Shown here: positions 15,104 to 64,000 of the stretch, piece by piece
Position numbering within the stretch: the stretch's first letter is position 1
How the letters are laid out: every line of letters begins with the position of its first letter
Source of the DNA: Escherichia coli
GTDB taxonomy: Bacteria > Pseudomonadota > Gammaproteobacteria > Enterobacterales > Enterobacteriaceae
Assembly: GCF_003790525.1 (NCBI RefSeq)
Contig: NZ_CP033635.1
DNA: 64,000 nucleotides
Strand: one strand, 5' to 3'
Made by a program: the position numbers and the translations under genes
The notes under the pieces: generated by a model
Told to the model about the DNA's origin: nothing
Database searches by the model: none
What the model saw: the letters and a program-made list of their open reading frames with translations, nothing else

Positions 15104-18100
15104 TTACCTGTTTAGCGTAGCGCGAATAATCGGCCCAATTTTTTCAAACGCCCCTGGAGAGATAATATCCACATGCGCACAATCCTGACGATAGATATCC
15201 AGCTCCGTAATCCACGGCGACCAGGCGCGTTCGGGATTCATACCTTCCTGAAGCGTGCGTTCAGCAACAAACAGCGTCGCTTTACCTTCAAACGGTACGC
15301 TATGAGCAGTCGTCAGCAGGCGCACAGCATCAGCGTAGTTGCCTTCAATGGTGGTAAACAACTCCGTTGAAGTACTTCCCTGCTGTGCCGCCAGGAAGGC
15401 CTCGCGCTCGCGGTTAATCTCCGCCAGCACTTCCGGGTCCAGGCCATTAGCCTCTTTTTCCTGCCAGTTTTGCGTTTCTGGCGGCCAGGTATCCAGCAAG
15501 CCAAGAAATGCCACCTGTTCGCCACGGGCACGCAGCCGCGCCGCAATACCCTGCGCCAGCGTACCGCCCAGCGAATAACCCAGCAGGTAATAAGGGCCGT
15601 GCGGTTGATGCTCAAGTAACGTTGCCAGATGCGCTTCGCAGACTTCATCCAGATTTGCCGCGGTCTGCATGGGGCCATTGGGGCGCGGCGACTGAATGCC
15701 GATAATCGACCATTGTGGATCGAGATAACGCGAGAGCACGCTGAACTGCCAGGCAAAACCGGAGGCCGGATGGAAACAAAACAGCGTCGGGCCATTACCT
15801 TCACGCAACGGCAGAATGGTTTCGAATCCCATGCGCCGGGAGCTGTCTTCTTCACCATCAATAATCGTTGCCAGTTTGGCGACAGTTGACGCGACCATCA
15901 CTTGCCCCGGCGTCACCTGTCGGGCAAACTGCCGACTTAACTGCGCAGCCAGTTTCATTGCCAGTAGCGAATGACCGCCAAGCGCAAAGAAATCAGCATC
16001 GGCATCCTGCACGTCACAACCCAGCAACGACGAGAATGCCGCGGCGATAATCGTTTCACTGCCCGCTTTCGGCGCACGCCCAGGCGCTTGTGCCTTCAGT
16101 TCAGGCAACGGTAAGGCTTTGCGATCCAGCTTGCCGTTGGCGCTAAGTGGTAACTGTGGAAGTTGCAGCAGAACCACCGGTACCATATGTGGTGGCAATG
16201 TTTCACGAAGCTGCGCCTGTAATGCGCTGGTATCCAACGGCAGACCTGATTGCGACACCAGATAGCCCACCAACTGACGCGCATCACCACCAGTGGCTGC
16301 CGCCTGGTTAATCACACAGGCGTGGGTAACGGCTTGTTCGACATCCGGCAGCGCCTGCATCACGCGATCAATTTCGCCCAGTTCGATACGCTGCCCGCGA
16401 ATTTTTAGCTGATCGTCACTGCGCCCGAGGTACTCCACTGCGCCGTTATCCAGCCAGCGGGCCACATCGCCGGTACGGTACATCCGTTCACCTGGGGCAA
16501 AAGGATCGGCAATAAAGCGGCTGGCGGTCAGATCGGGTCGTCCAAGATACCCCTGCGCCAGTTGAATACCGGTGAGATAGAGATCTCCCGCCACACCCGG
16601 CGGCACCGGATGCATCATCGCATCGAGAATGCGCAGGCCCGTATTCCACACCGGATAACCAATCGGCACACTGCTGCCGCGCACCTCTGCCAGTTCCTCG
16701 CCAAAAGCCGGATACCAACTGACATCTACCGCCGCTTCCGTCGGGCCATATAGATTATGCAACGGCGCGCCGGTTAACTGTTGCCATTCGCGGCATAAAT
16801 CAGCCGGTAAGGCTTCACCACTACAGAAAACCTGTTTCAACGTCGCGCAACTCTGGCGAGCGGTTTGCGGCGTCAGCGATGCAACAAATGCCGCCAGCAT
16901 CGACGGCACAAAGTGCGTGGTCGTTACGCCATAATCAGCAAAAAAATGCTGCATAGCGAGCGGGTCGCGGTGCGCTTCCGGTTCAGCCATCACAAGTTTC
17001 GCCCCGGCAATAAACGGCCAGAAAAACTCCCACACCGAGACATCAAAACTGCATGGCGTTTTTTGGGCAACGACATCTTCGCCTGTAAGCGGGTAATGGT
17101 TTTGCATCCAAAGCAGGCGATTAACGATAGCCGTCTGCCCGACCATTACCCCTTTTGGTCTGCCGGTGGAACCGGAGGTGAAGATGATATAAGCCGTGTG
17201 GTGCGGTTGTGAAAGCTGCAGCGGCGCACTGCCCTGTGGTGTAAGCGGGGCGTTATAGCAAAGGCGGGTTAAATCTGGAACATCGGCAAAGCGCGGCAGT
17301 TGATCGTCGGTGGTGATTAACAGCGACGGACGCGCATCTTCCAGCATCATTTTCAGGCGATCGTCCGGATAGCCGGTATCCAACGGTAGCCAGGCCGCAC
17401 CAGCTTCAACAATCGCATGTAGCGCCAGGGTCAAAAAGACCGAGCGCGGTAATGCCACCGCCACGCTGTCGCCTGGTTTAACGCCGCGCTCACGCAGCAG
17501 ATTCGCCAGCGCCACCACCTGTTCGCGCATTTCCCGATAGCTGAACTGGTAACGCGCATCAACCAGCGCCGGAGCATCCGGTGTTTTTGCCGCTTGTTCT
17601 GCCACCAGCGCGCTCAGCGTGGTTTCTGGAATCTCAACCTGAGTGGCGTTGATCTGCGCCAGCTGCGCATACTCGCCTGGCAGCATAATATCGACATCGC
17701 CGCACAACAGCGACGGATCCGCGGCGAACTGCGCAATCAGCATTTTCAGGCGTTCAGCATGCTGGATTAACGTTGGCTCAGCGTAACGCTGTTTATTGGC
17801 GATGATCTCAATACTCAAATCACCGTGTTCATCCGGGAACAGGGCCAGCTCAAGGTCATTAACCGGACCGGTTGCCAGGGTATGGGTTTGCGCCTGAACA
17901 CCAGGAATATCCAGTTGGTAATCAAATACCTTGATATTGAGTACCGGACCGAACAGCGGTTCCTCTCCTGCCGCTCGCCCACTGTCACGGACAATTTGTT
18001 CGGCGTCGTAGCGTTGATGGCGGCGCATTTTTTTCAGTTGAGCCGCCAGTCGGGTTGCCAGTTGCGGCAGCGTTTCTTGCGCCGCAATGTGAATACCCAA

Positions 18101-25152: not shown

Positions 25153-25305
25153 CTACTTCTTCGGTTCGTAAGCGAGAACAGCCTTAAACTCAATATTACG
25201 TTCCTTCACCGTAAACTCACACAGCGAGTCTCCGACCAGAAGCGTAAATCCCAGCACCGTCAAACACAGCACTATGACTGCCACAAGGGCATATTTCGTC
25301 AGCAT
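25153..25305 (-). CDS. hokE: Hok-family type I toxin (small membrane peptide)
   Basis: 50-aa peptide [50 protein letters not shown], typical Hok/Gef. The listed 88-aa ORF is an in-frame upstream extension. Confidence 0.85.
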
Positions 25306-25737
25306 GTTTATATTGCCTCCATGCGAAGAAGGGACTACCATCCAAATTGTTCGGGTTTGGAGTGGCAGCCCCAGGGTTGATAGAAATATCTCCTGGGGCT
25401 TCATCTTTCCAGACCTCAAAGTTAACCTGAAACCGGAAAGCTTCAGGCACCCGCCGTTATCTTACCCTTCCTCAACAAAATAGCTGTTTATTTATACAGT
25501 AAATCCTGTTTCGGACTTCTCACTCCCCATTTGATCAACTGAAGCTGAACCCGTTTTTATCTGCACGCCTCAATCGTCAAAATTCTTCGCCGCCAGCCAA
25601 CTATGACGCAACTGGTCACATTGCAAAATGTAGCCAATTTGCTTCAGTCACCATCACCAAAAAAAGAAATATTCCAGAACTTCCGCATCTCGCCCAGTCG
25701 CTCCCACTTCTATACTGAATAGAAAACGCCAACATAA

Positions 25738-59104: not shown

Positions 59105-60168
59105 AACAGGTTTGCGTCCTCGGTAACGGGCAGTTAGGCCGTATGCTGCGTCAGGCAGGCGAACCGTTAGGCATTGCTGTCTGGCCAGTCGGGCTGGACG
59201 CTGAACCGGCGGCGGTGCCTTTTCAACAAAGTGTGATTACCGCTGAGATCGAACGCTGGCCGGAAACCGCATTAACCCGCGAGCTGGCGCGCCATCCGGC
59301 CTTTGTGAACCGCGATGTGTTCCCGATTATTGCTGACCGTCTGACTCAGAAGCAGCTTTTCGATAAGCTCCACCTGCCGACCGCACCGTGGCAGTTACTT
59401 GCCGATCGCAGCGAGTGGCCTGCGGTGTTTGATCGTTTAGGTGAGCTGGCGATTGTTAAGCGTCGCACTGGTGGCTATGACGGACGCGGTCAATGGCGTT
59501 TACGCGCCGATGAAACCGAACAGTTACCGACTGAATGCTACGGCGAATGTATTGTCGAGCAGGGCATAAACTTCTCTGGTGAAGTGTCGCTGGTTGGCGC
59601 GCGCGGCTTTGATGGTAGTACCGTGTTTTATCCGCTGACGCATAACCTGCATCAGGACGGTATTTTGCGCACCAGCGTCGCTTTCCCGCAGGCCAACGCG
59701 CAGCAGCAGGCGCAGGCCGAAGAGATGCTGTCGGCGATTATGCAGGAGCTGGGCTATGTGGGCGTGATGGCGATGGAGTGTTTTGTCACCCCACAAGGTC
59801 TGCTGATCAACGAACTGGCTCCGCGTGTGCATAACAGTGGGCACTGGACGCAAAACGGTGCCAGCATCAGCCAGTTTGAGCTGCATCTGCGGGCGATTAC
59901 CGATCTGCCGTTACCACAACCGGTGGTGAATAGTCCGTCGGTGATGATCAACCTGATTGGTAGCGATGTGAATTATGACTGGCTGAAACTGCCGCTGGTG
60001 CATCTGCACTGGTACGACAAAGAAGTCCGTCCGGGGCGTAAAGTGGGGCATTTAAATTTGACCGACAGCGACACATCGCGTCTGACCGCGACGCTGGAAG
60101 CCTTAATCCCGCTGCTGCCGCCAGAATATGCTAGCGGCGTGATTTGGGCGCAGAGCAAGTTCAGTTAA
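59101..60168 (+). CDS. purK: N5-carboxyaminoimidazole ribonucleotide synthetase (ATP-grasp)
   Basis: 355-aa ORF; its ATG overlaps the purE stop (ATGA). Confidence 0.95.
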
Positions 60169-60185
60169 TTGATGCTCATTTTCTT

Positions 60186-60370
60186 GCCGCATGCGGCGTG
60201 AACGCCTTATCCGGCCTACCGTTCCAACACCGACTGTAGGCCTGATAAGATGCGCCAGCATCGCATCAGGCATGGTGTGCCGATTGCCGGATGCGGCGTG
60301 AACGCCTTATCCGGCCTACCGTTCCGACACCGCCTGTAGACCTGATAAGACGCGCCAGCATCGCATCAGG
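60186..60370. repeat. BIME: four REP palindromes in alternating orientation downstream of purK
   Basis: REP units at about 60186-60219, 60235-60270, 60286-60319 and 60335-60370, i.e. an approximately 100-bp unit repeated twice (GCCGGATGCGGCGTGAACGCCTTATCCGGCCTAC and GTAGGCCTGATAAG..CATCAGGC). Confidence 0.75.
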
Positions 60371-60400
60371 CTAGATGTGCCAATTGCCTGGTGCCCATCA

Positions 60401-61294
60401 CTACAGCGAAATACAGGTCCCCGCTTCGCCCGCCAGCGTCTCTTCAATTCGCGATAACGCCCCAATCCACGCGGGTTTACCACGGCTTCTGACATAGCCA
60501 CTCACTGCCGTTACCTTCGGCCCCATCGAACCATCGGCTTTGGCAAGTGGCGCTAACTCATCCGGTGTGGCATGGCGAATGGCACGTTGCTGCGGCGTTC
60601 CCCAGTTTTCATATACCGCATCAGCATCGGTGAGGATCACCAGTCCATCGGCATTAATCTGCTCGGCGAGCAACGCAGCGGCGAGATCTTTATCAATCAC
60701 TGCTTCACTCCCTACTCCGTCATCCGTCACAGGCACACCGCCGCCGCCACTGCAAATCACCACATGCCCCTCTTTGAGCAACAACTCGATGGCTTCGCTG
60801 TCGAGAATATTACGCGGTTGCGGAGACGCCACCACCCGGCGCAAATATTTACCATCACGTTTCATCTGCCAGCCGTAAGCAGCTTCCAGTGCCTCTTGTT
60901 CTTCTGGCTGATAAACCGGACCGATAAACTTCTCTGGCTGCAAAAACGCCGGATCATCAGGCGAAACCTCAATGCGCGTCAGCACCGTCGTGACAGGCGG
61001 CATCTGCGGCTGTGCGCTCAAGCTCTGCACCAGCATATAGCCAATCATCCCCTGGCTTTCCGCCACCAGCACATCCAGCGGATACGGTTCTACCTCTTTC
61101 CACGCCAGATTCTGTAACGCCAACAGCCCCACCTGTGGCCCGTTGCCGTGAACAATCGCCAGCCGATAAGAACGGGCCAGGCGCGCCAGCGCGGGTACAG
61201 CACTGGCAATATTGCGATATTGATTTTCTGCCGTCAGCGCCTCACCGCGCTGGAGTAAGGCGTTGCCCCCAAGAGCCACAACCAGTGTTTTCAT
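60401..61294 (-). CDS. ybcF: Carbamate kinase-like protein (ArcC family)
   Basis: 297-aa protein starting [18 protein letters not shown] (amino-acid kinase fold); the listed ORF has a 38-codon extension overlapping ylbF. Confidence 0.88.
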
Positions 61295-62106
61295 GGTTTT
61301 CCTTGTAATAATTGTTGGCCAAGCCAGAACCCCAGCAGCGTATCGGCCCCTGACGTATGCCCCAGCGCCAGCAGCGAATCGATCGCCGCTGCGGTACGTT
61401 TCGGGCAACTCAGAGCATGAACAAAGTGCAGGAGTGGCGAGGCGAAATATCCTTGCGCGGCATAACGTAAATAACTGACGCTCACCGCTGTGGTAACGAG
61501 TTGAAGATTGTCGGAACAGGCAAAAAACGGGCGACCGGAGCGCGCATCTAAAGCGCCATAATACCAGGCCGCCAGCAGCATTCCGCTCAGCGTGTCATCA
61601 TGACTTGGCGTTAATCCTGGGCCTTTACCCAGCCAGTGCCGCCAGTCGGTCTTAACGCCATTGAGCGCGGCCTGAAAACAGTGACGAAACTGGCGTAACT
61701 CAGCAGGCAGCGGATCGCTTGCCGCCATCGCCAGTGGCCCGAAAAGCCCGGTTTCCTCCGCGCGTTGCATCCATGCAGCTGCAAGCGGTTGAGGATGCGC
61801 AGGCGGCGTAATACGCAGCAAACAATAACGCTGTGGCTGTTTAACCGTGAAACGTCCGAGGCGAATGCCTTGAGCCACAACCTGTGGTCGTTCATTGCCG
61901 CATAATCCACCGCATAACGCATCGAATTGCGCGCGGCGAAGCACCCATCCTCCGGGGCCGAAACCACTCCCCTGACGATGCAGCGTTAACAGTTCGCCGC
62001 TTTCCGTCATCAGGTTAATCGCCCGCCGCCAGATGCCCGCTAACCGCCAGGACTGGCAATAATTCGGTGCACTACGGCTGGCAAGCAGAGGATGGATGAT
62101 CGTCAT
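61291..62106 (-). CDS. ylbF: DUF2877 protein YlbF
   Basis: 271-aa protein starting MTIIHPLL; its stop overlaps the ybcF start (ATGA on the coding strand). Confidence 0.85.
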
Positions 62107-62116
62107 TGCGCGTTCC

Positions 62117-63376
62117 TCAACCAATACCCATGCTTTCAGCCAGAGCTTCCAGCGCCTGTTCAAAGCACGCCAGCGGTGCCCGCACGGTGCCTGCACCAAT
62201 CTGCCCGATCCCCGCCTCTTTATGGGCGATACCCGTATTGATGAGTGGTGTAATGCCGGTTTCTACCACGCGACGAATATCCAGCCCCAGACACGCGCCC
62301 TGGAAATCCCAGCCAGGGATCTGCAACTGCATATTGCGTTCAAGGAAGATTTCTGCCATCTCTTCAGATACTGCTCTGGCTGCTTCCATACCACCCGCAC
62401 CGACAAAGCGTGTTACGCCAGGGGCGGCGATCATTGCCGCACCACCGATACCAAAGGTTTCGGTAATCGCGCTATCGCCCATATCCGGGTTCGCCTGCTC
62501 CTGCGAGAAGCCGGTGAAAAACAGACCTTGCGGAGTGTTTACAGGCGCAGTAAACCAGCGCTCGCCCAGCCCACTTACCCGAATCCCGAACATATTGCCG
62601 TTGCGGGTCATAGCCGTAACGATGCTGCCCGCGCGGATCATCGCGCCTGCATCCATCGCCGCCTTGCAATAGGCCATCGCGAGGTTGAGGAAGAACTGAT
62701 CGGTCACGCTGAGGAAATCCATCACTTCCGCGATGTGCTGTTTATCGTGATTGAGGCGAGCAATTTGTGGGGCCAGCGCGCGCATCAACAGTGCTGAGGA
62801 TGCAATGTTGCGCTGATGGAACTCATCGCCCATGGTAATGCCCTGTGCCATCATCGCGGTGAGATCGATACCGCGCTCCATGCGCCCCAGCGCCGCGCTT
62901 AATACTGGCATTAACACATCGCGCATCCAGCGATGGCGAGTCAGGACATCTTCGCCGTAAGCGCCAAAACGCATCACTTTGCCGATACCTTCGTTGAGGT
63001 TGCAGTAGGCCCGGTTGCCGTCGGTCACGTTCTCGACCACCAGCATCGGCATACTGGCAGAAGTAATGCCACCCATTGGCCCGACGGCATTCACATGGTG
63101 ACAAGGAATGAAGTTCACTTCCCCCTGCTCCAGCATCGCCAGCGCCTGCGCTTCATCTTTCGCCCAGCCTTCGAACAGACATGCGCCCACGCACGCCCCT
63201 TTCATGGGTCCGGTCATCTCCTGCCAGCGCATTGGCGGCCCGGCGTGAAGCAGTGTTTTGCCCTTGTTTAGTTCGCTGATAAGTGAAGAAGCCGGTTGCA
63301 CATCCAGCCAGTGTGGACGAGCGCGACGAATTTGTTCGATAACCGCAGCATTGGCTTGCGCCACTGATGTAAACAT
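62117..63376 (-). CDS. ylbE: DUF1116 protein YlbE (intact reading frame)
   Basis: Uninterrupted 419-aa ORF starting [26 protein letters not shown]. Confidence 0.85.
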
Positions 63377-63385
63377 GGGAACCCC

Positions 63386-64000
63386 TTATTGCAAACGTTC
63401 TAATAAACGAGCCAGTTTTTTATTGCCGCCGGCGACTGGCGACCATTGGTAATGCACAACCGGTTTGCTGGCGCTTTGTAGCTCCAGCGCAAAGCTGCGT
63501 AATCCGATGTTAATCACGGCGACGTTTTCCAGTAATGACGGTGTGTGTTGCTGTGTGGCAGGCGAGAGCGGATGAATTAACGCCGCCGCCAGCAAGGTGG
63601 CTTCCGGTAGCGAACTCACTACCGCGATCCCCGCATCTTCCAACGTGGCGATTTGCTGCGCGCGGCATTGCGGGTCACGTTCAGTGCCTGTCACCGTGGC
63701 AATGGCATACAGTGGTTGATTGTCTGAACGCGCGGCACAGGCTTTTTGCCAGGCGCTCACCAGCGAGGCGGCAGGATCGGCGGTCGCACCGAAGCCAATC
63801 ACGACATCAAGCAGCAACACGCGCACTTGCGGTTTAGCGCCGAGATCGGCAATTAACAGGTTGCGTAAGGTCGGGTCGATCATCGGATGGGGACGCCCGA
63901 CGGTGTAAAAATCATCGCCCAGGTCGAGGATCTGATGTCCGTCGGCGTCCAGCATCATGCCATGTTGATGGGTATCGTCGGCTTCCACGCCAAGGTGTCC
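63386..64000 (-). CDS. fdrA: FdrA (acyl-CoA synthetase/succinyl-CoA synthetase-like) protein, C-terminal part; gene continues beyond the window end
   Basis: Frame open from the window end (64000) to the stop at 63386-63388; the 200-aa visible segment matches the remembered FdrA C-terminus. Confidence 0.8.
   Translation of the reverse strand, partial: GHLGVEADDTHQHGMMLDADGHQILDLGDDFYTVGRPHPMIDPTLRNLLIADLGAKPQVRVLLLDVVIGFGATADPAASLVSAWQKACAARSDNQPLYAIATVTGTERDPQCRAQQIATLEDAGIAVVSSLPEATLLAAALIHPLSPATQQHTPSLLENVAVINIGLRSFALELQSASKPVVHYQWSPVAGGNKKLARLLERLQ

Follow-up and report, generated by a model that had tools for sequence, protein, structure and literature searches.

The four genes on the minus strand at the end of the window, the 64,000-nucleotide stretch of Escherichia coli DNA analyzed here, are almost certainly the known E. 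coli allFGHK operon (old names fdrA-ylbE-ylbF-ybcF), which encodes a three-protein oxamate carbamoyltransferase together with a carbamate kinase, enzymes of the final, ATP-yielding part of anaerobic allantoin degradation. An earlier sequence-only reading had arrived at these gene names, at a single operon and at an oxamate carbamoyltransferase paired with an ATP-recovering carbamate kinase; family tests, identity to K-12 and published experiments all agree with it. Its caution that most of the biochemistry came from gene context is out of date, since experiments on the K-12 system have been published (PMC9843812, PMC11326118). Work on K-12 between 2022 and 2025 described the operon together with its products and how it is regulated, and the finding is therefore correct but ordinary.

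In the window allK (ybcF) occupies positions 60401-61294 (297 residues, ATG start, TAG stop), allH (ylbF) 61291-62106 (271 residues, ATG start, TGA stop), allG (ylbE) 62117-63376 (419 residues, ATG start, TGA stop) and the 3' part of allF (fdrA) 63386-64000, where the window end cuts the gene and leaves 204 codons of its 3' end plus the stop codon (63386-63388). The full-length allF encodes 555 residues and lies at 15286-16953 of the matching record L001; its start and its promoter fall past the end of the window. The former families DUF1116 and DUF2877 now carry the Pfam names AllG and AllH. On one side the operon adjoins the divergently transcribed allD-allC-allE genes and on the other purK, the same neighbors as in K-12. 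All of the gene starts agree with the RefSeq annotation; that of allK is backed by the alignment of NF006926 (model positions 1-296 on protein residues 1-296) and that of allH by homologues beginning at the same methionine. In-frame TTG codons farther upstream, at 62199 for ylbF and at 61408 for ybcF, were dropped as starts in favor of the annotated ATGs, which have Shine-Dalgarno motifs and family-alignment support, and long antisense open reading frames from the mechanical list, e.g. 62096-62797 on the plus strand, gave way to the annotated genes.

The window matches E. coli SMS-3-5 at 100% identity, a strain in which an IS1 is inserted in the nearby transporter gene ybbY, and the four proteins are 98.2-98.8% identical over full length to their K-12 counterparts (fdrA b0518, ylbE b4572, ylbF b0520, ybcF b0521; Kim & Kim 2022, 2024, 2025). 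Genes, order, junctions and neighbors are the same as in K-12, from which the window shows strain-level differences alone. Of the 5426 complete E. coli genomes, 5401 contain 80% or more of the 3.9-kb stretch. Between K-12 and SMS-3-5 each gene carries 22-48 nucleotide changes (2.5-3.8%) and merely 5-10 amino acid changes, a disproportion that points to purifying selection on allFGHK.

The three gene junctions, all on the minus strand, are as tight as the sequence-only reading had stated. The allF-allG junction (63377-63385) is a 9-nt spacer, GGGGTTCCC, between the fdrA TAA and the ylbE ATG, with a Shine-Dalgarno-like AAGGGG overlapping the allF stop; the allG-allH junction (62107-62116) is a 10-nt spacer, GGAACGCGCA, between the ylbE TGA and the ylbF ATG, with GAGGA overlapping the allG stop; and at the allH-allK junction (61291-61294) stop and start share the 4 nt ATGA, with AAGGA 5 nt before the ATG. 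These motifs lie 5-7 nt 5' of the respective starts. All three junction sequences are identical in K-12, and the Salmonella genes are laid out alike, their gaps measuring 9, 11 and 3 nt. Such junctions have the structure of translationally coupled gene pairs, namely a short spacer or overlap and a ribosome-binding site in or abutting the upstream gene. Since each ribosome-binding site falls within the 3' end of the gene before it or directly beside it, translation across the allFGHK junctions is, to judge from their sequence, probably coupled, through re-initiation or linked recruitment of ribosomes.

The further step from tight spacing to stoichiometric co-expression of the subunits goes beyond the evidence. 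In the purified K-12 preparation AllF and AllG are present in similar amounts and AllH is less abundant (PMC11326118), and E. coli operons commonly have gaps of no more than 10 nt. Spacing this short occurs in 17 of the 38 same-strand adjacent gene pairs of the window, and the ent and fep operons in the same window show similar runs of at least two tight junctions (entE-entB is 13 nt). The allFGHK spacing is thus typical of E. coli operons, weak evidence for a complex and no proof of equimolar subunits.

That the four genes form one transcription unit has been established in K-12, where RT-PCR across all junctions, a check that had been proposed from the sequence, yields a single four-gene transcript (PMC9843812). 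The mapped promoter lies upstream of allF, where AllS and ArcA bind and activate it, and lacZ fusions demonstrate that it drives the operon (PMC12535856). When the four genes and the sequence on either side were scanned for consensus signals, 3 sites resembled promoters and 5 resembled terminators; the shuffled-sequence expectation was 3.3 and 5.9. None of these sites lies at a gene junction, although weak internal promoters may escape so simple a scan, and the promoter-like sites on the coding strand are solely upstream of fdrA; the scan gives no support for independent expression of the four genes. At the other end of the operon, two tandem 100-nt repeats of the REP/BIME type (60184-60383, unstranded) lie where allK and purK converge, inside an intergenic spacer of 232 nt (194 nt in K-12). 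The two copies form a direct repeat of 91% identity. The Rfam family naRNA4, which is REP-derived, matches this spacer at 83 bits; at a permissive threshold Rfam gave naRNA4 matches in the spacer and no other family, with no match at the junctions, and no intrinsic-terminator-like site was seen in the spacer. The operon transcript likely ends in this repeat region.

Evidence for the enzyme itself comes from experiments on K-12 genes and proteins, which are 98.2-98.8% identical to those in the window. Deletion and complementation show that oxamate production requires allF, allG and allH: deletion of allF alone abolishes it, and deletion of allH lowers oxamate from 17.7 to 1.2 mM, with restoration by plasmid-borne allH (PMC11326118). 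Plasmids carrying allFG alone or allGH alone restore 7% and 16% of production (PMC11326118), and the necessity of each subunit in vivo is by this partial rescue not absolute. A purified AllF-AllG-AllH preparation has oxamate carbamoyltransferase activity in the reverse direction, from oxamate and carbamoyl phosphate to oxalurate, with Km values of 1.3 mM for carbamoyl phosphate and 36.9 mM for oxamate; the oxalurate product was detected by LC-MS and NMR, and the activity depends on Mg2+ in an assay mix that contains neither CoA nor nucleotide (PMC11326118). The carbamoyltransferase activity that had been predicted is thus borne out, although not by the oxalurate to oxamate assay that had been suggested; only the reverse direction was assayed because oxalurate cannot be purchased, and the forward direction rests on the mutant phenotypes. 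YgeW, formerly proposed as the oxamate enzyme, is inactive with oxamate-related compounds (PMC11326118).

The best reading of the operon is as follows. One promoter upstream of allF is switched on through AllS with allantoin as nitrogen source and through ArcA under anaerobiosis, and gives rise to a single four-gene mRNA. From oxalurate and phosphate, AllF, AllG and AllH jointly produce oxamate and carbamoyl phosphate (EC 2.1.3.5); AllK transfers the phosphate of carbamoyl phosphate to ADP, giving ATP and carbamate (EC 2.7.2.2), and the carbamate decays to ammonia and CO2.

Co-purification of the three carbamoyltransferase proteins, another check proposed with the sequence-only reading, succeeded in part: untagged AllG co-purifies with doubly His-tagged AllF and AllH, but AllF and AllG are washed off when AllH alone bears the tag (PMC11326118), so that a stable three-subunit complex is not demonstrated. 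AllF and AllG appear to form the core of the enzyme and AllH a looser partner, since other organisms have the two as a fusion and AllG is purified by way of AllF. AllG scores 325.6 bits against Pfam PF06545 (gathering cut-off 27) and AllH 102.9 bits against PF11392 (gathering cut-off 25), and the folds of both are without a characterized structural relative.

A stronger form of this asymmetry, in which AllH is not a stoichiometric subunit but assists, activates or regulates a core enzyme made of AllF and AllG, is the alternative that survives best, and it is still unlikely. The loss of AllF and AllG from tagged AllH, the lower abundance of AllH and the residual 7% of oxamate production by allFG speak for it, as does the pace of AllH evolution, much faster than that of AllG: AllH homologues in further enterobacterial genera, Citrobacter among them, show 60-68% identity, and Salmonella AllG shows 93%. 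AllF-AllG fusions or pairs also occur in three distant loci (L005, L008, L014) with no recognizable AllH gene nearby, and were AllH non-stoichiometric, the tight gene spacing, common as it is in the window, would be uninformative on the stoichiometry of the complex. Against it stand the steep fall in oxamate upon allH deletion with its rescue by a plasmid copy, strictly conserved Asp, His, Ser and Thr motifs in AllH that are typical of an active or ligand-binding site and may represent one, and the placement of allH directly 3' of allG in E. coli, Salmonella, Proteus, Gilliamella and two metagenomic relatives. The paralogous yah module of K-12 likewise retains a DUF2877 gene.

The full-length AllF protein, of which the last 204 residues alone are inside the window, scores 1036.6 bits against the NCBIfam FdrA model NF004760 (cut-off 433) and contains the CoA_binding (PF02629, 48.4 bits) and Ligase_CoA (PF00549, 121.9 bits) domains that it has in common with succinyl-CoA synthetase alpha chains and NDP-forming acyl-CoA synthetases; a second Ligase_CoA domain lies at residues 336-491. 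A crystal structure, 3DMY, comprises residues 82-555 of K-12 AllF. In BLASTP, AllF residues 118-290 align to SucD residues 66-238 (E 1e-9), and the similarity ends there, just short of the phosphohistidine loop (GHAGA, His246). The succinate-CoA ligase alpha models stop correspondingly, TIGR01019 at position 236 of 286 and NF004230 at 209 of 291, with scores of 47-53 bits that are far under the cut-offs of 336-353. A MAFFT alignment placed the SucD GHAGA on GHLGV at AllF residues 352-356, a candidate rejected because long gaps bridge the alignment and AllF homologues do not conserve His353. BLASTP found no significant similarity of AllF to SucC, so that the second domain of AllF is tied to the succinyl-CoA synthetase fold by the Pfam Ligase_CoA match alone, and Pfam finds no ATP-grasp domain in AllF, AllG or AllH. 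AllF has an extra N-terminal domain (Pfam HMA_AllF_N in homologues) and a conserved motif of its own, DLGDDxFTxG(K/R)PHPMIDP. Conserved residues include His389 and His373 of AllF for this motif, Asp170, Asp171 and His250 of AllH, and His187, Arg189 and Lys238 of AllG. AllF would thus be a succinyl-CoA-synthetase-like scaffold that has neither the ATP-grasp partner nor the phosphohistidine loop.

The same domains, and the significant similarity to succinyl-CoA synthetase alpha chains, underlie the proposal that FdrA is a true acyl-CoA synthetase, e.g. an oxamate:CoA ligase as put forward in the 2012 CanOE analysis (PMC3364942), with the carbamoyltransferase residing in YlbE and/or YlbF only; the RefSeq product name is still "acyl-CoA synthetase FdrA". 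This is very improbable given that deletion of allF alone abolishes oxamate production, that allGH restores just 16% of it, and that the purified proteins act with neither CoA nor nucleotide present. The truncated SucD similarity, the partial family matches below cut-off, the lack of an ATP-grasp domain in AllG and AllH and the AllF-AllG fusions of other organisms count against it as well.

With AllF read as a subunit of the carbamoyltransferase, the AllFGH chemistry appears to differ from that of the classical transcarbamylases, because the AllF scaffold is without ATP-grasp partner and phosphohistidine loop and the activity is Mg2+-dependent. The reaction type is that of the ATCase/OTCase superfamily, transfer of carbamoyl between carbamoyl phosphate and an amine or amide nitrogen, but AllFGH has no sequence or domain similarity to it: neither OTCace_N nor OTCace is found by Pfam in AllF, AllG or AllH at E <= 1e-3. 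The arginine deiminase pathway, with the catabolic ornithine transcarbamylase ArcB and the carbamate kinase ArcC, shares the logic of the operon, a ureido compound being phosphorolyzed to carbamoyl phosphate, which yields ATP via carbamate kinase. AllK belongs to the kinase family of ArcC, whereas AllFGH is unrelated to ArcB and needs three gene products and Mg2+.

AllK scores 615.8 bits against the NCBIfam carbamate kinase equivalog NF006926 (cut-off 416) and 423.7 bits against TIGR00746, the arcC equivalog (cut-off 358.25), matches the Pfam AA_kinase family of the amino-acid kinase fold, and is matched by solved carbamate kinases at E values from 3.5e-89, that of the closest, 8CRV, to 2e-37. 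It is 98.3% identical to K-12 YbcF, which when purified makes ATP from carbamoyl phosphate and ADP with measured carbamate kinase kinetics (PMC9843812). Deletion of ybcF in K-12 has no detectable effect on allantoin degradation or on the carbamate kinase activity of crude lysates (PMC9843812), and for this reason the in vivo role of AllK is derived from its membership in the operon and its activity in vitro.

A second set of the same four protein families (DUF2877/AllH, FdrA-like, DUF1116/AllG and carbamate-kinase-like) is found elsewhere in the K-12 chromosome as yahE-yahF-yahG-(yahH)-yahI-yahJ. This cluster is also tightly packed, yahE and yahF overlapping by 11 nt and yahF and yahG by 1 nt, but its order is H-F-G as opposed to F-G-H, yahH separates off the kinase gene, and an amidohydrolase gene, yahJ, is attached; identity of the yah proteins to AllH, AllF, AllG and AllK is 24, 38, 45 and 38%, respectively. 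Given this paralogous set, the four-gene transcript, the arrangement in 5401 of 5426 E. coli genomes and the F-G-H order kept in Salmonella, Proteus and Gilliamella, it is hardly conceivable that unrelated, independently expressed genes came to lie side by side by chance.

Farther afield the module loosens. Among nine distant AllG contexts that were sampled (32-57% identity), AllF is adjacent or fused in five, AllH is present in two and an amino-acid-kinase gene is nearby in one, a count on which a universal link of the AllG family to carbamate kinase was rejected. The four-gene string typifies the enterobacterial clade and not the AllG family as a whole; it has also been reported from some nitrifiers (PMC12625717). 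Fusions of AllF and AllG are represented by nine proteins of ~1000 residues, each from a separate 50%-identity cluster, that contain Ligase_CoA and AllG in one chain, six of them with CoA_binding as well. One AllG-AllF pair adjoins a ring amidohydrolase of the cyanuric-acid/barbiturate type, and other AllG and AllF-AllG genes lie close to creatininase or CoA-metabolism genes.

For the window itself these results add little, and what stays worthwhile about AllFGH is its mechanism. In urease-negative enterobacteria, allFGHK fills what was the final orphan step in the anaerobic salvage of nitrogen from allantoin (purine), and breakdown of oxalurate through the module yields one ATP per oxalurate. 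Beyond this, and tentatively, AllFGH may be the mechanistically unexplained founding member of a large enzyme class, whose relatives would phosphorolyze other ureides or N-acyl compounds and pass carbamoyl phosphate to carbamate kinase for ATP. This possibility is raised because AllF has no ATP-grasp partner or phosphohistidine loop, because the AllG and AllH folds match no characterized protein, and because relatives occur in other genomic settings, such as yahEFG-yahI, the AllF-AllG fusions and neighborhoods of amidohydrolase, creatininase and CoA-metabolism genes.

Direct reading of window positions 59800-64000, together with the ORF list, places four genes on the minus strand: ybcF (60401-61294, 297 aa), ylbF (61291-62106, 271 aa), ylbE (62117-63376, 419 aa) and fdrA (63386-64000), the last of which is cut by the window end to its final 204 codons. 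These are the RefSeq names; fdrA, ylbE and ylbF have been renamed allFGH (Kim & Kim 2024, PMC11326118) and ybcF has been renamed allK (Kim & Kim 2022, PMC9843812). The fdrA/ylbE junction reads TAA-GGGGTTCCC-ATG (gap 9 nt), the ylbE/ylbF junction TGA-GGAACGCGCA-ATG (gap 10 nt), and ylbF and ybcF share an ATGA overlap, exactly the co-directional arrangement described in a sequence-only reading that did not mention the minus strand, the fdrA truncation or the position of the fdrA promoter outside the window. Shine-Dalgarno-like AAGGGG, GAGGA and AAGGA lie 5-7 nt before the ylbE, ylbF and ybcF starts, respectively, in or against the 3' end of the preceding gene. A consensus scan found coding-strand promoter-like sites only upstream of fdrA and no promoter- or terminator-like sites at the junctions, with no excess over shuffled sequence.

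In the RefSeq annotation the operon is flanked by the divergent allD-allC-allE operon on one side and the convergent purK-purE pair on the other. The 232-nt convergent allK-purK spacer is filled by two tandem 100-nt REP/BIME-type repeats (window 60184-60383, 91% identical) and is matched on both strands by the REP-derived Rfam naRNA4; no intrinsic terminator for allK or purK was detected in it, and the K-12 spacer is 194 nt with other REP content. Elsewhere in the window, an argU-type tRNA-Arg(UCU) gene (46891-46967, minus) is followed within ~46 bp by envY, whereas K-12 carries DLP12, a cryptic prophage of 21.3 kb, between them, along with emrE, appY and ompT; the attachment site is thus unoccupied and ompT is absent at this locus. 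The hokE type I toxin gene (window ~25153-25542; NC_010498.1 610059-610448), between ybdK and entD, overlaps a frameshifted hypothetical pseudogene. Outside the window, in the allantoin cluster of E. coli SMS-3-5 (L001 21669-23747; NC_010498.1 563754-565832), an IS1 splits a uracil/xanthine transporter gene between allB and glxK, and both halves are annotated as pseudogenes.

The tight spacing of allFGHK is not by itself special. Across the window as annotated in RefSeq, neighbours on the same strand are separated by a median of 12.5 nt, and 17 of the 38 such pairs lie no more than 10 nt apart; the ent and fep operons contain comparable series of tight junctions, and junctions in cus and sfm measure 10-30 nt. 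It is ordinary operon architecture, compatible with translational coupling without proving it, and the significant aspect of the arrangement is its conservation. The 3.9-kb stretch with these genes is 100% identical to SMS-3-5 (NC_010498.1), and of 5426 complete E. coli genomes, 5401 contain at least 80% of it. Junction sequences are identical to those of K-12. Each gene differs from its K-12 counterpart at 22-48 nucleotides but at no more than 5-10 amino acids, which points to purifying selection. In Salmonella the genes stand in the equivalent setting, 9, 11 and 3 nt apart; Proteus retains the gene order less tightly packed (12, 36 and 46 nt); in Gilliamella F-G-H is tight (12 and 3 nt) and the kinase-family gene, on the opposite strand, lies ~4 kb upstream of allF. 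AllH evolves much faster than AllG, being 60-68% identical in other enterobacterial genera (e.g. Citrobacter) in contrast to 93% for Salmonella AllG. Many database AllH entries are truncated (e.g. a 217-aa Shigella sonnei form) or fused, including AllG-AllH and AllH-AllK read-through products, a pattern that would fit sporadic decay of allH.

The proteins encoded here are 98-99% identical to those of K-12. The ylbE and ylbF products match Pfam PF06545, presently named "Oxamate carbamoyltransferase subunit AllG" (325.6 bits, cut-off 27), and PF11392, "subunit AllH" (102.9 bits, cut-off 25); that of fdrA matches NCBIfam FdrA NF004760 (1036.6 bits, cut-off 433) and Pfam CoA_binding and Ligase_CoA. 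The ybcF product exceeds the cut-offs of the carbamate kinase equivalogs NF006926 and TIGR00746 (615.8 and 423.7 bits) and matches solved carbamate kinases, best 8CRV (E 3.5e-89).

The allFGHK system is not new and has been characterised by experiment, its context-based functional prediction dating to the CanOE study of 2012 (PMC3364942), and every check proposed in the sequence-only reading has been attempted on the K-12 proteins. The operon was borne out by RT-PCR across the junctions: all two-, three- and four-gene combinations were amplified from cDNA of K-12 grown anaerobically on allantoin (PMC9843812). Anaerobiosis with allantoin gives a 38-fold induction that requires AllS and ArcA; their binding sites span -203 to -144 and -142 to -83, counted from the allF start (Kim & Kim 2025, PMC12535856). 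In keeping with the proposed ATP-recovering kinase, YbcF in purified form uses carbamoyl phosphate and ADP to generate ATP (Km 0.47 and 0.43 mM); ybcF deletion is without phenotype and leaves crude-lysate kinase activity unaltered (PMC9843812). Oxamate production is abolished by deletion of fdrA or ylbE, is nearly abolished (1.2 mM) by that of ylbF, and is fully restored only by all three genes together, plasmid-borne allFG or allGH alone giving 7% and 16% (PMC11326118). Purified His-AllF, untagged AllG and AllH-His form oxalurate from oxamate and carbamoyl phosphate (Mg2+-dependent, optimum pH 9, Km 1.3 and 36.9 mM), so that carbamoyltransferase activity is established in the reverse direction only, not from oxalurate to oxamate as had been proposed. 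Untagged AllG is purified along with tagged AllF; when only AllH carries a tag, AllF and AllG are washed off. AllH appeared substoichiometric (PMC11326118). The observation is therefore confirmed and the oxamate carbamoyltransferase plus carbamate kinase interpretation supported; given the reverse-only assay, the ybcF null phenotype, the AllH wash-off and the residual 7% and 16%, the stoichiometric multi-subunit enzyme is only partly demonstrated.

Residual production with allGH or allFG only could come from the K-12 yahE-yahF-yahG-yahH-yahI-yahJ module (L011 3926-10508; NC_000913.3 335925-342507), which is paralogous to allFGHK and encodes DUF2877 (yahE), FdrA-like (yahF), DUF1116 (yahG), carbamate-kinase-like (yahI) and amidohydrolase (yahJ) proteins, with overlapping yahE/yahF/yahG junctions and 24, 38, 45 and 38% identity to AllH, AllF, AllG and AllK.

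With regard to mechanism, Pfam searches found neither an ATCase/OTCase nor an ATP-grasp domain in AllF, AllG or AllH. AllF residues 118-290 align to SucD 66-238 (E 1e-9), ending just short of the phosphohistidine loop, and succinate-CoA ligase alpha models match it, far under cut-offs, to position 236/286 (or 209/291); AllF is an incomplete relative of succinyl-CoA synthetase alpha. Seven diverse AllF-type sequences share DLGDDxFTxG(K/R)PHPMIDP, with His389 invariant. No solved structural relative of AllH was found; its invariant motifs are GxGxGLTPSxDDxLxG and GH(T/S)SGxDxLxG.

At least nine of the top-scoring 50%-identity cluster representatives are single-chain Ligase_CoA plus AllG proteins of ~1000 aa (P0123, P0130, P0131, P0133, P0135, P0143, P0159, P0238 and P0243, from several divergent clusters); six also carry CoA_binding, and P0135 has an extra C-terminal ChrR-type cupin domain. 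Fusion genes lie at loci L004 (2123-5134) and L014 (8001-11087), the former overlapping a downstream allH by 17 nt with no carbamate kinase gene nearby. From the fusions, this overlap and the purification of AllG with tagged AllF rather than tagged AllH, we infer that AllF and AllG form a core to which AllH is more loosely attached.

At E <= 1e-3, the AllG family comprises 3122 cluster representatives. Among nine distant AllG contexts sampled for neighbours, AllF is adjacent or fused in five, AllH is present in two and an amino-acid-kinase gene in one; further neighbours are an AtzD/TrzD ring amidohydrolase, enoyl-CoA hydratase, Asp/Glu racemases, CoA-transferase and creatininase. In ammonia-oxidising archaea and comammox Nitrospira, allFGHK is reported to lie beside biuret and triuret genes (2025 metagenomic study, PMC12625717). 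Distant AllG (DUF1116) genes occur in non-allantoin settings (L005 1494-5773; L008 897-4669; L009 5867-9730; L010 3143-6401; L013; L015), for example beside the ring amidohydrolase, enoyl-CoA hydratase, racemases with CoA-transferase and creatininase, a PaaA/PaaC-like gene or a molybdenum hydroxylase cluster, several with no AllH or AllF gene nearby, and these settings suggest that the AllG family has other substrates.
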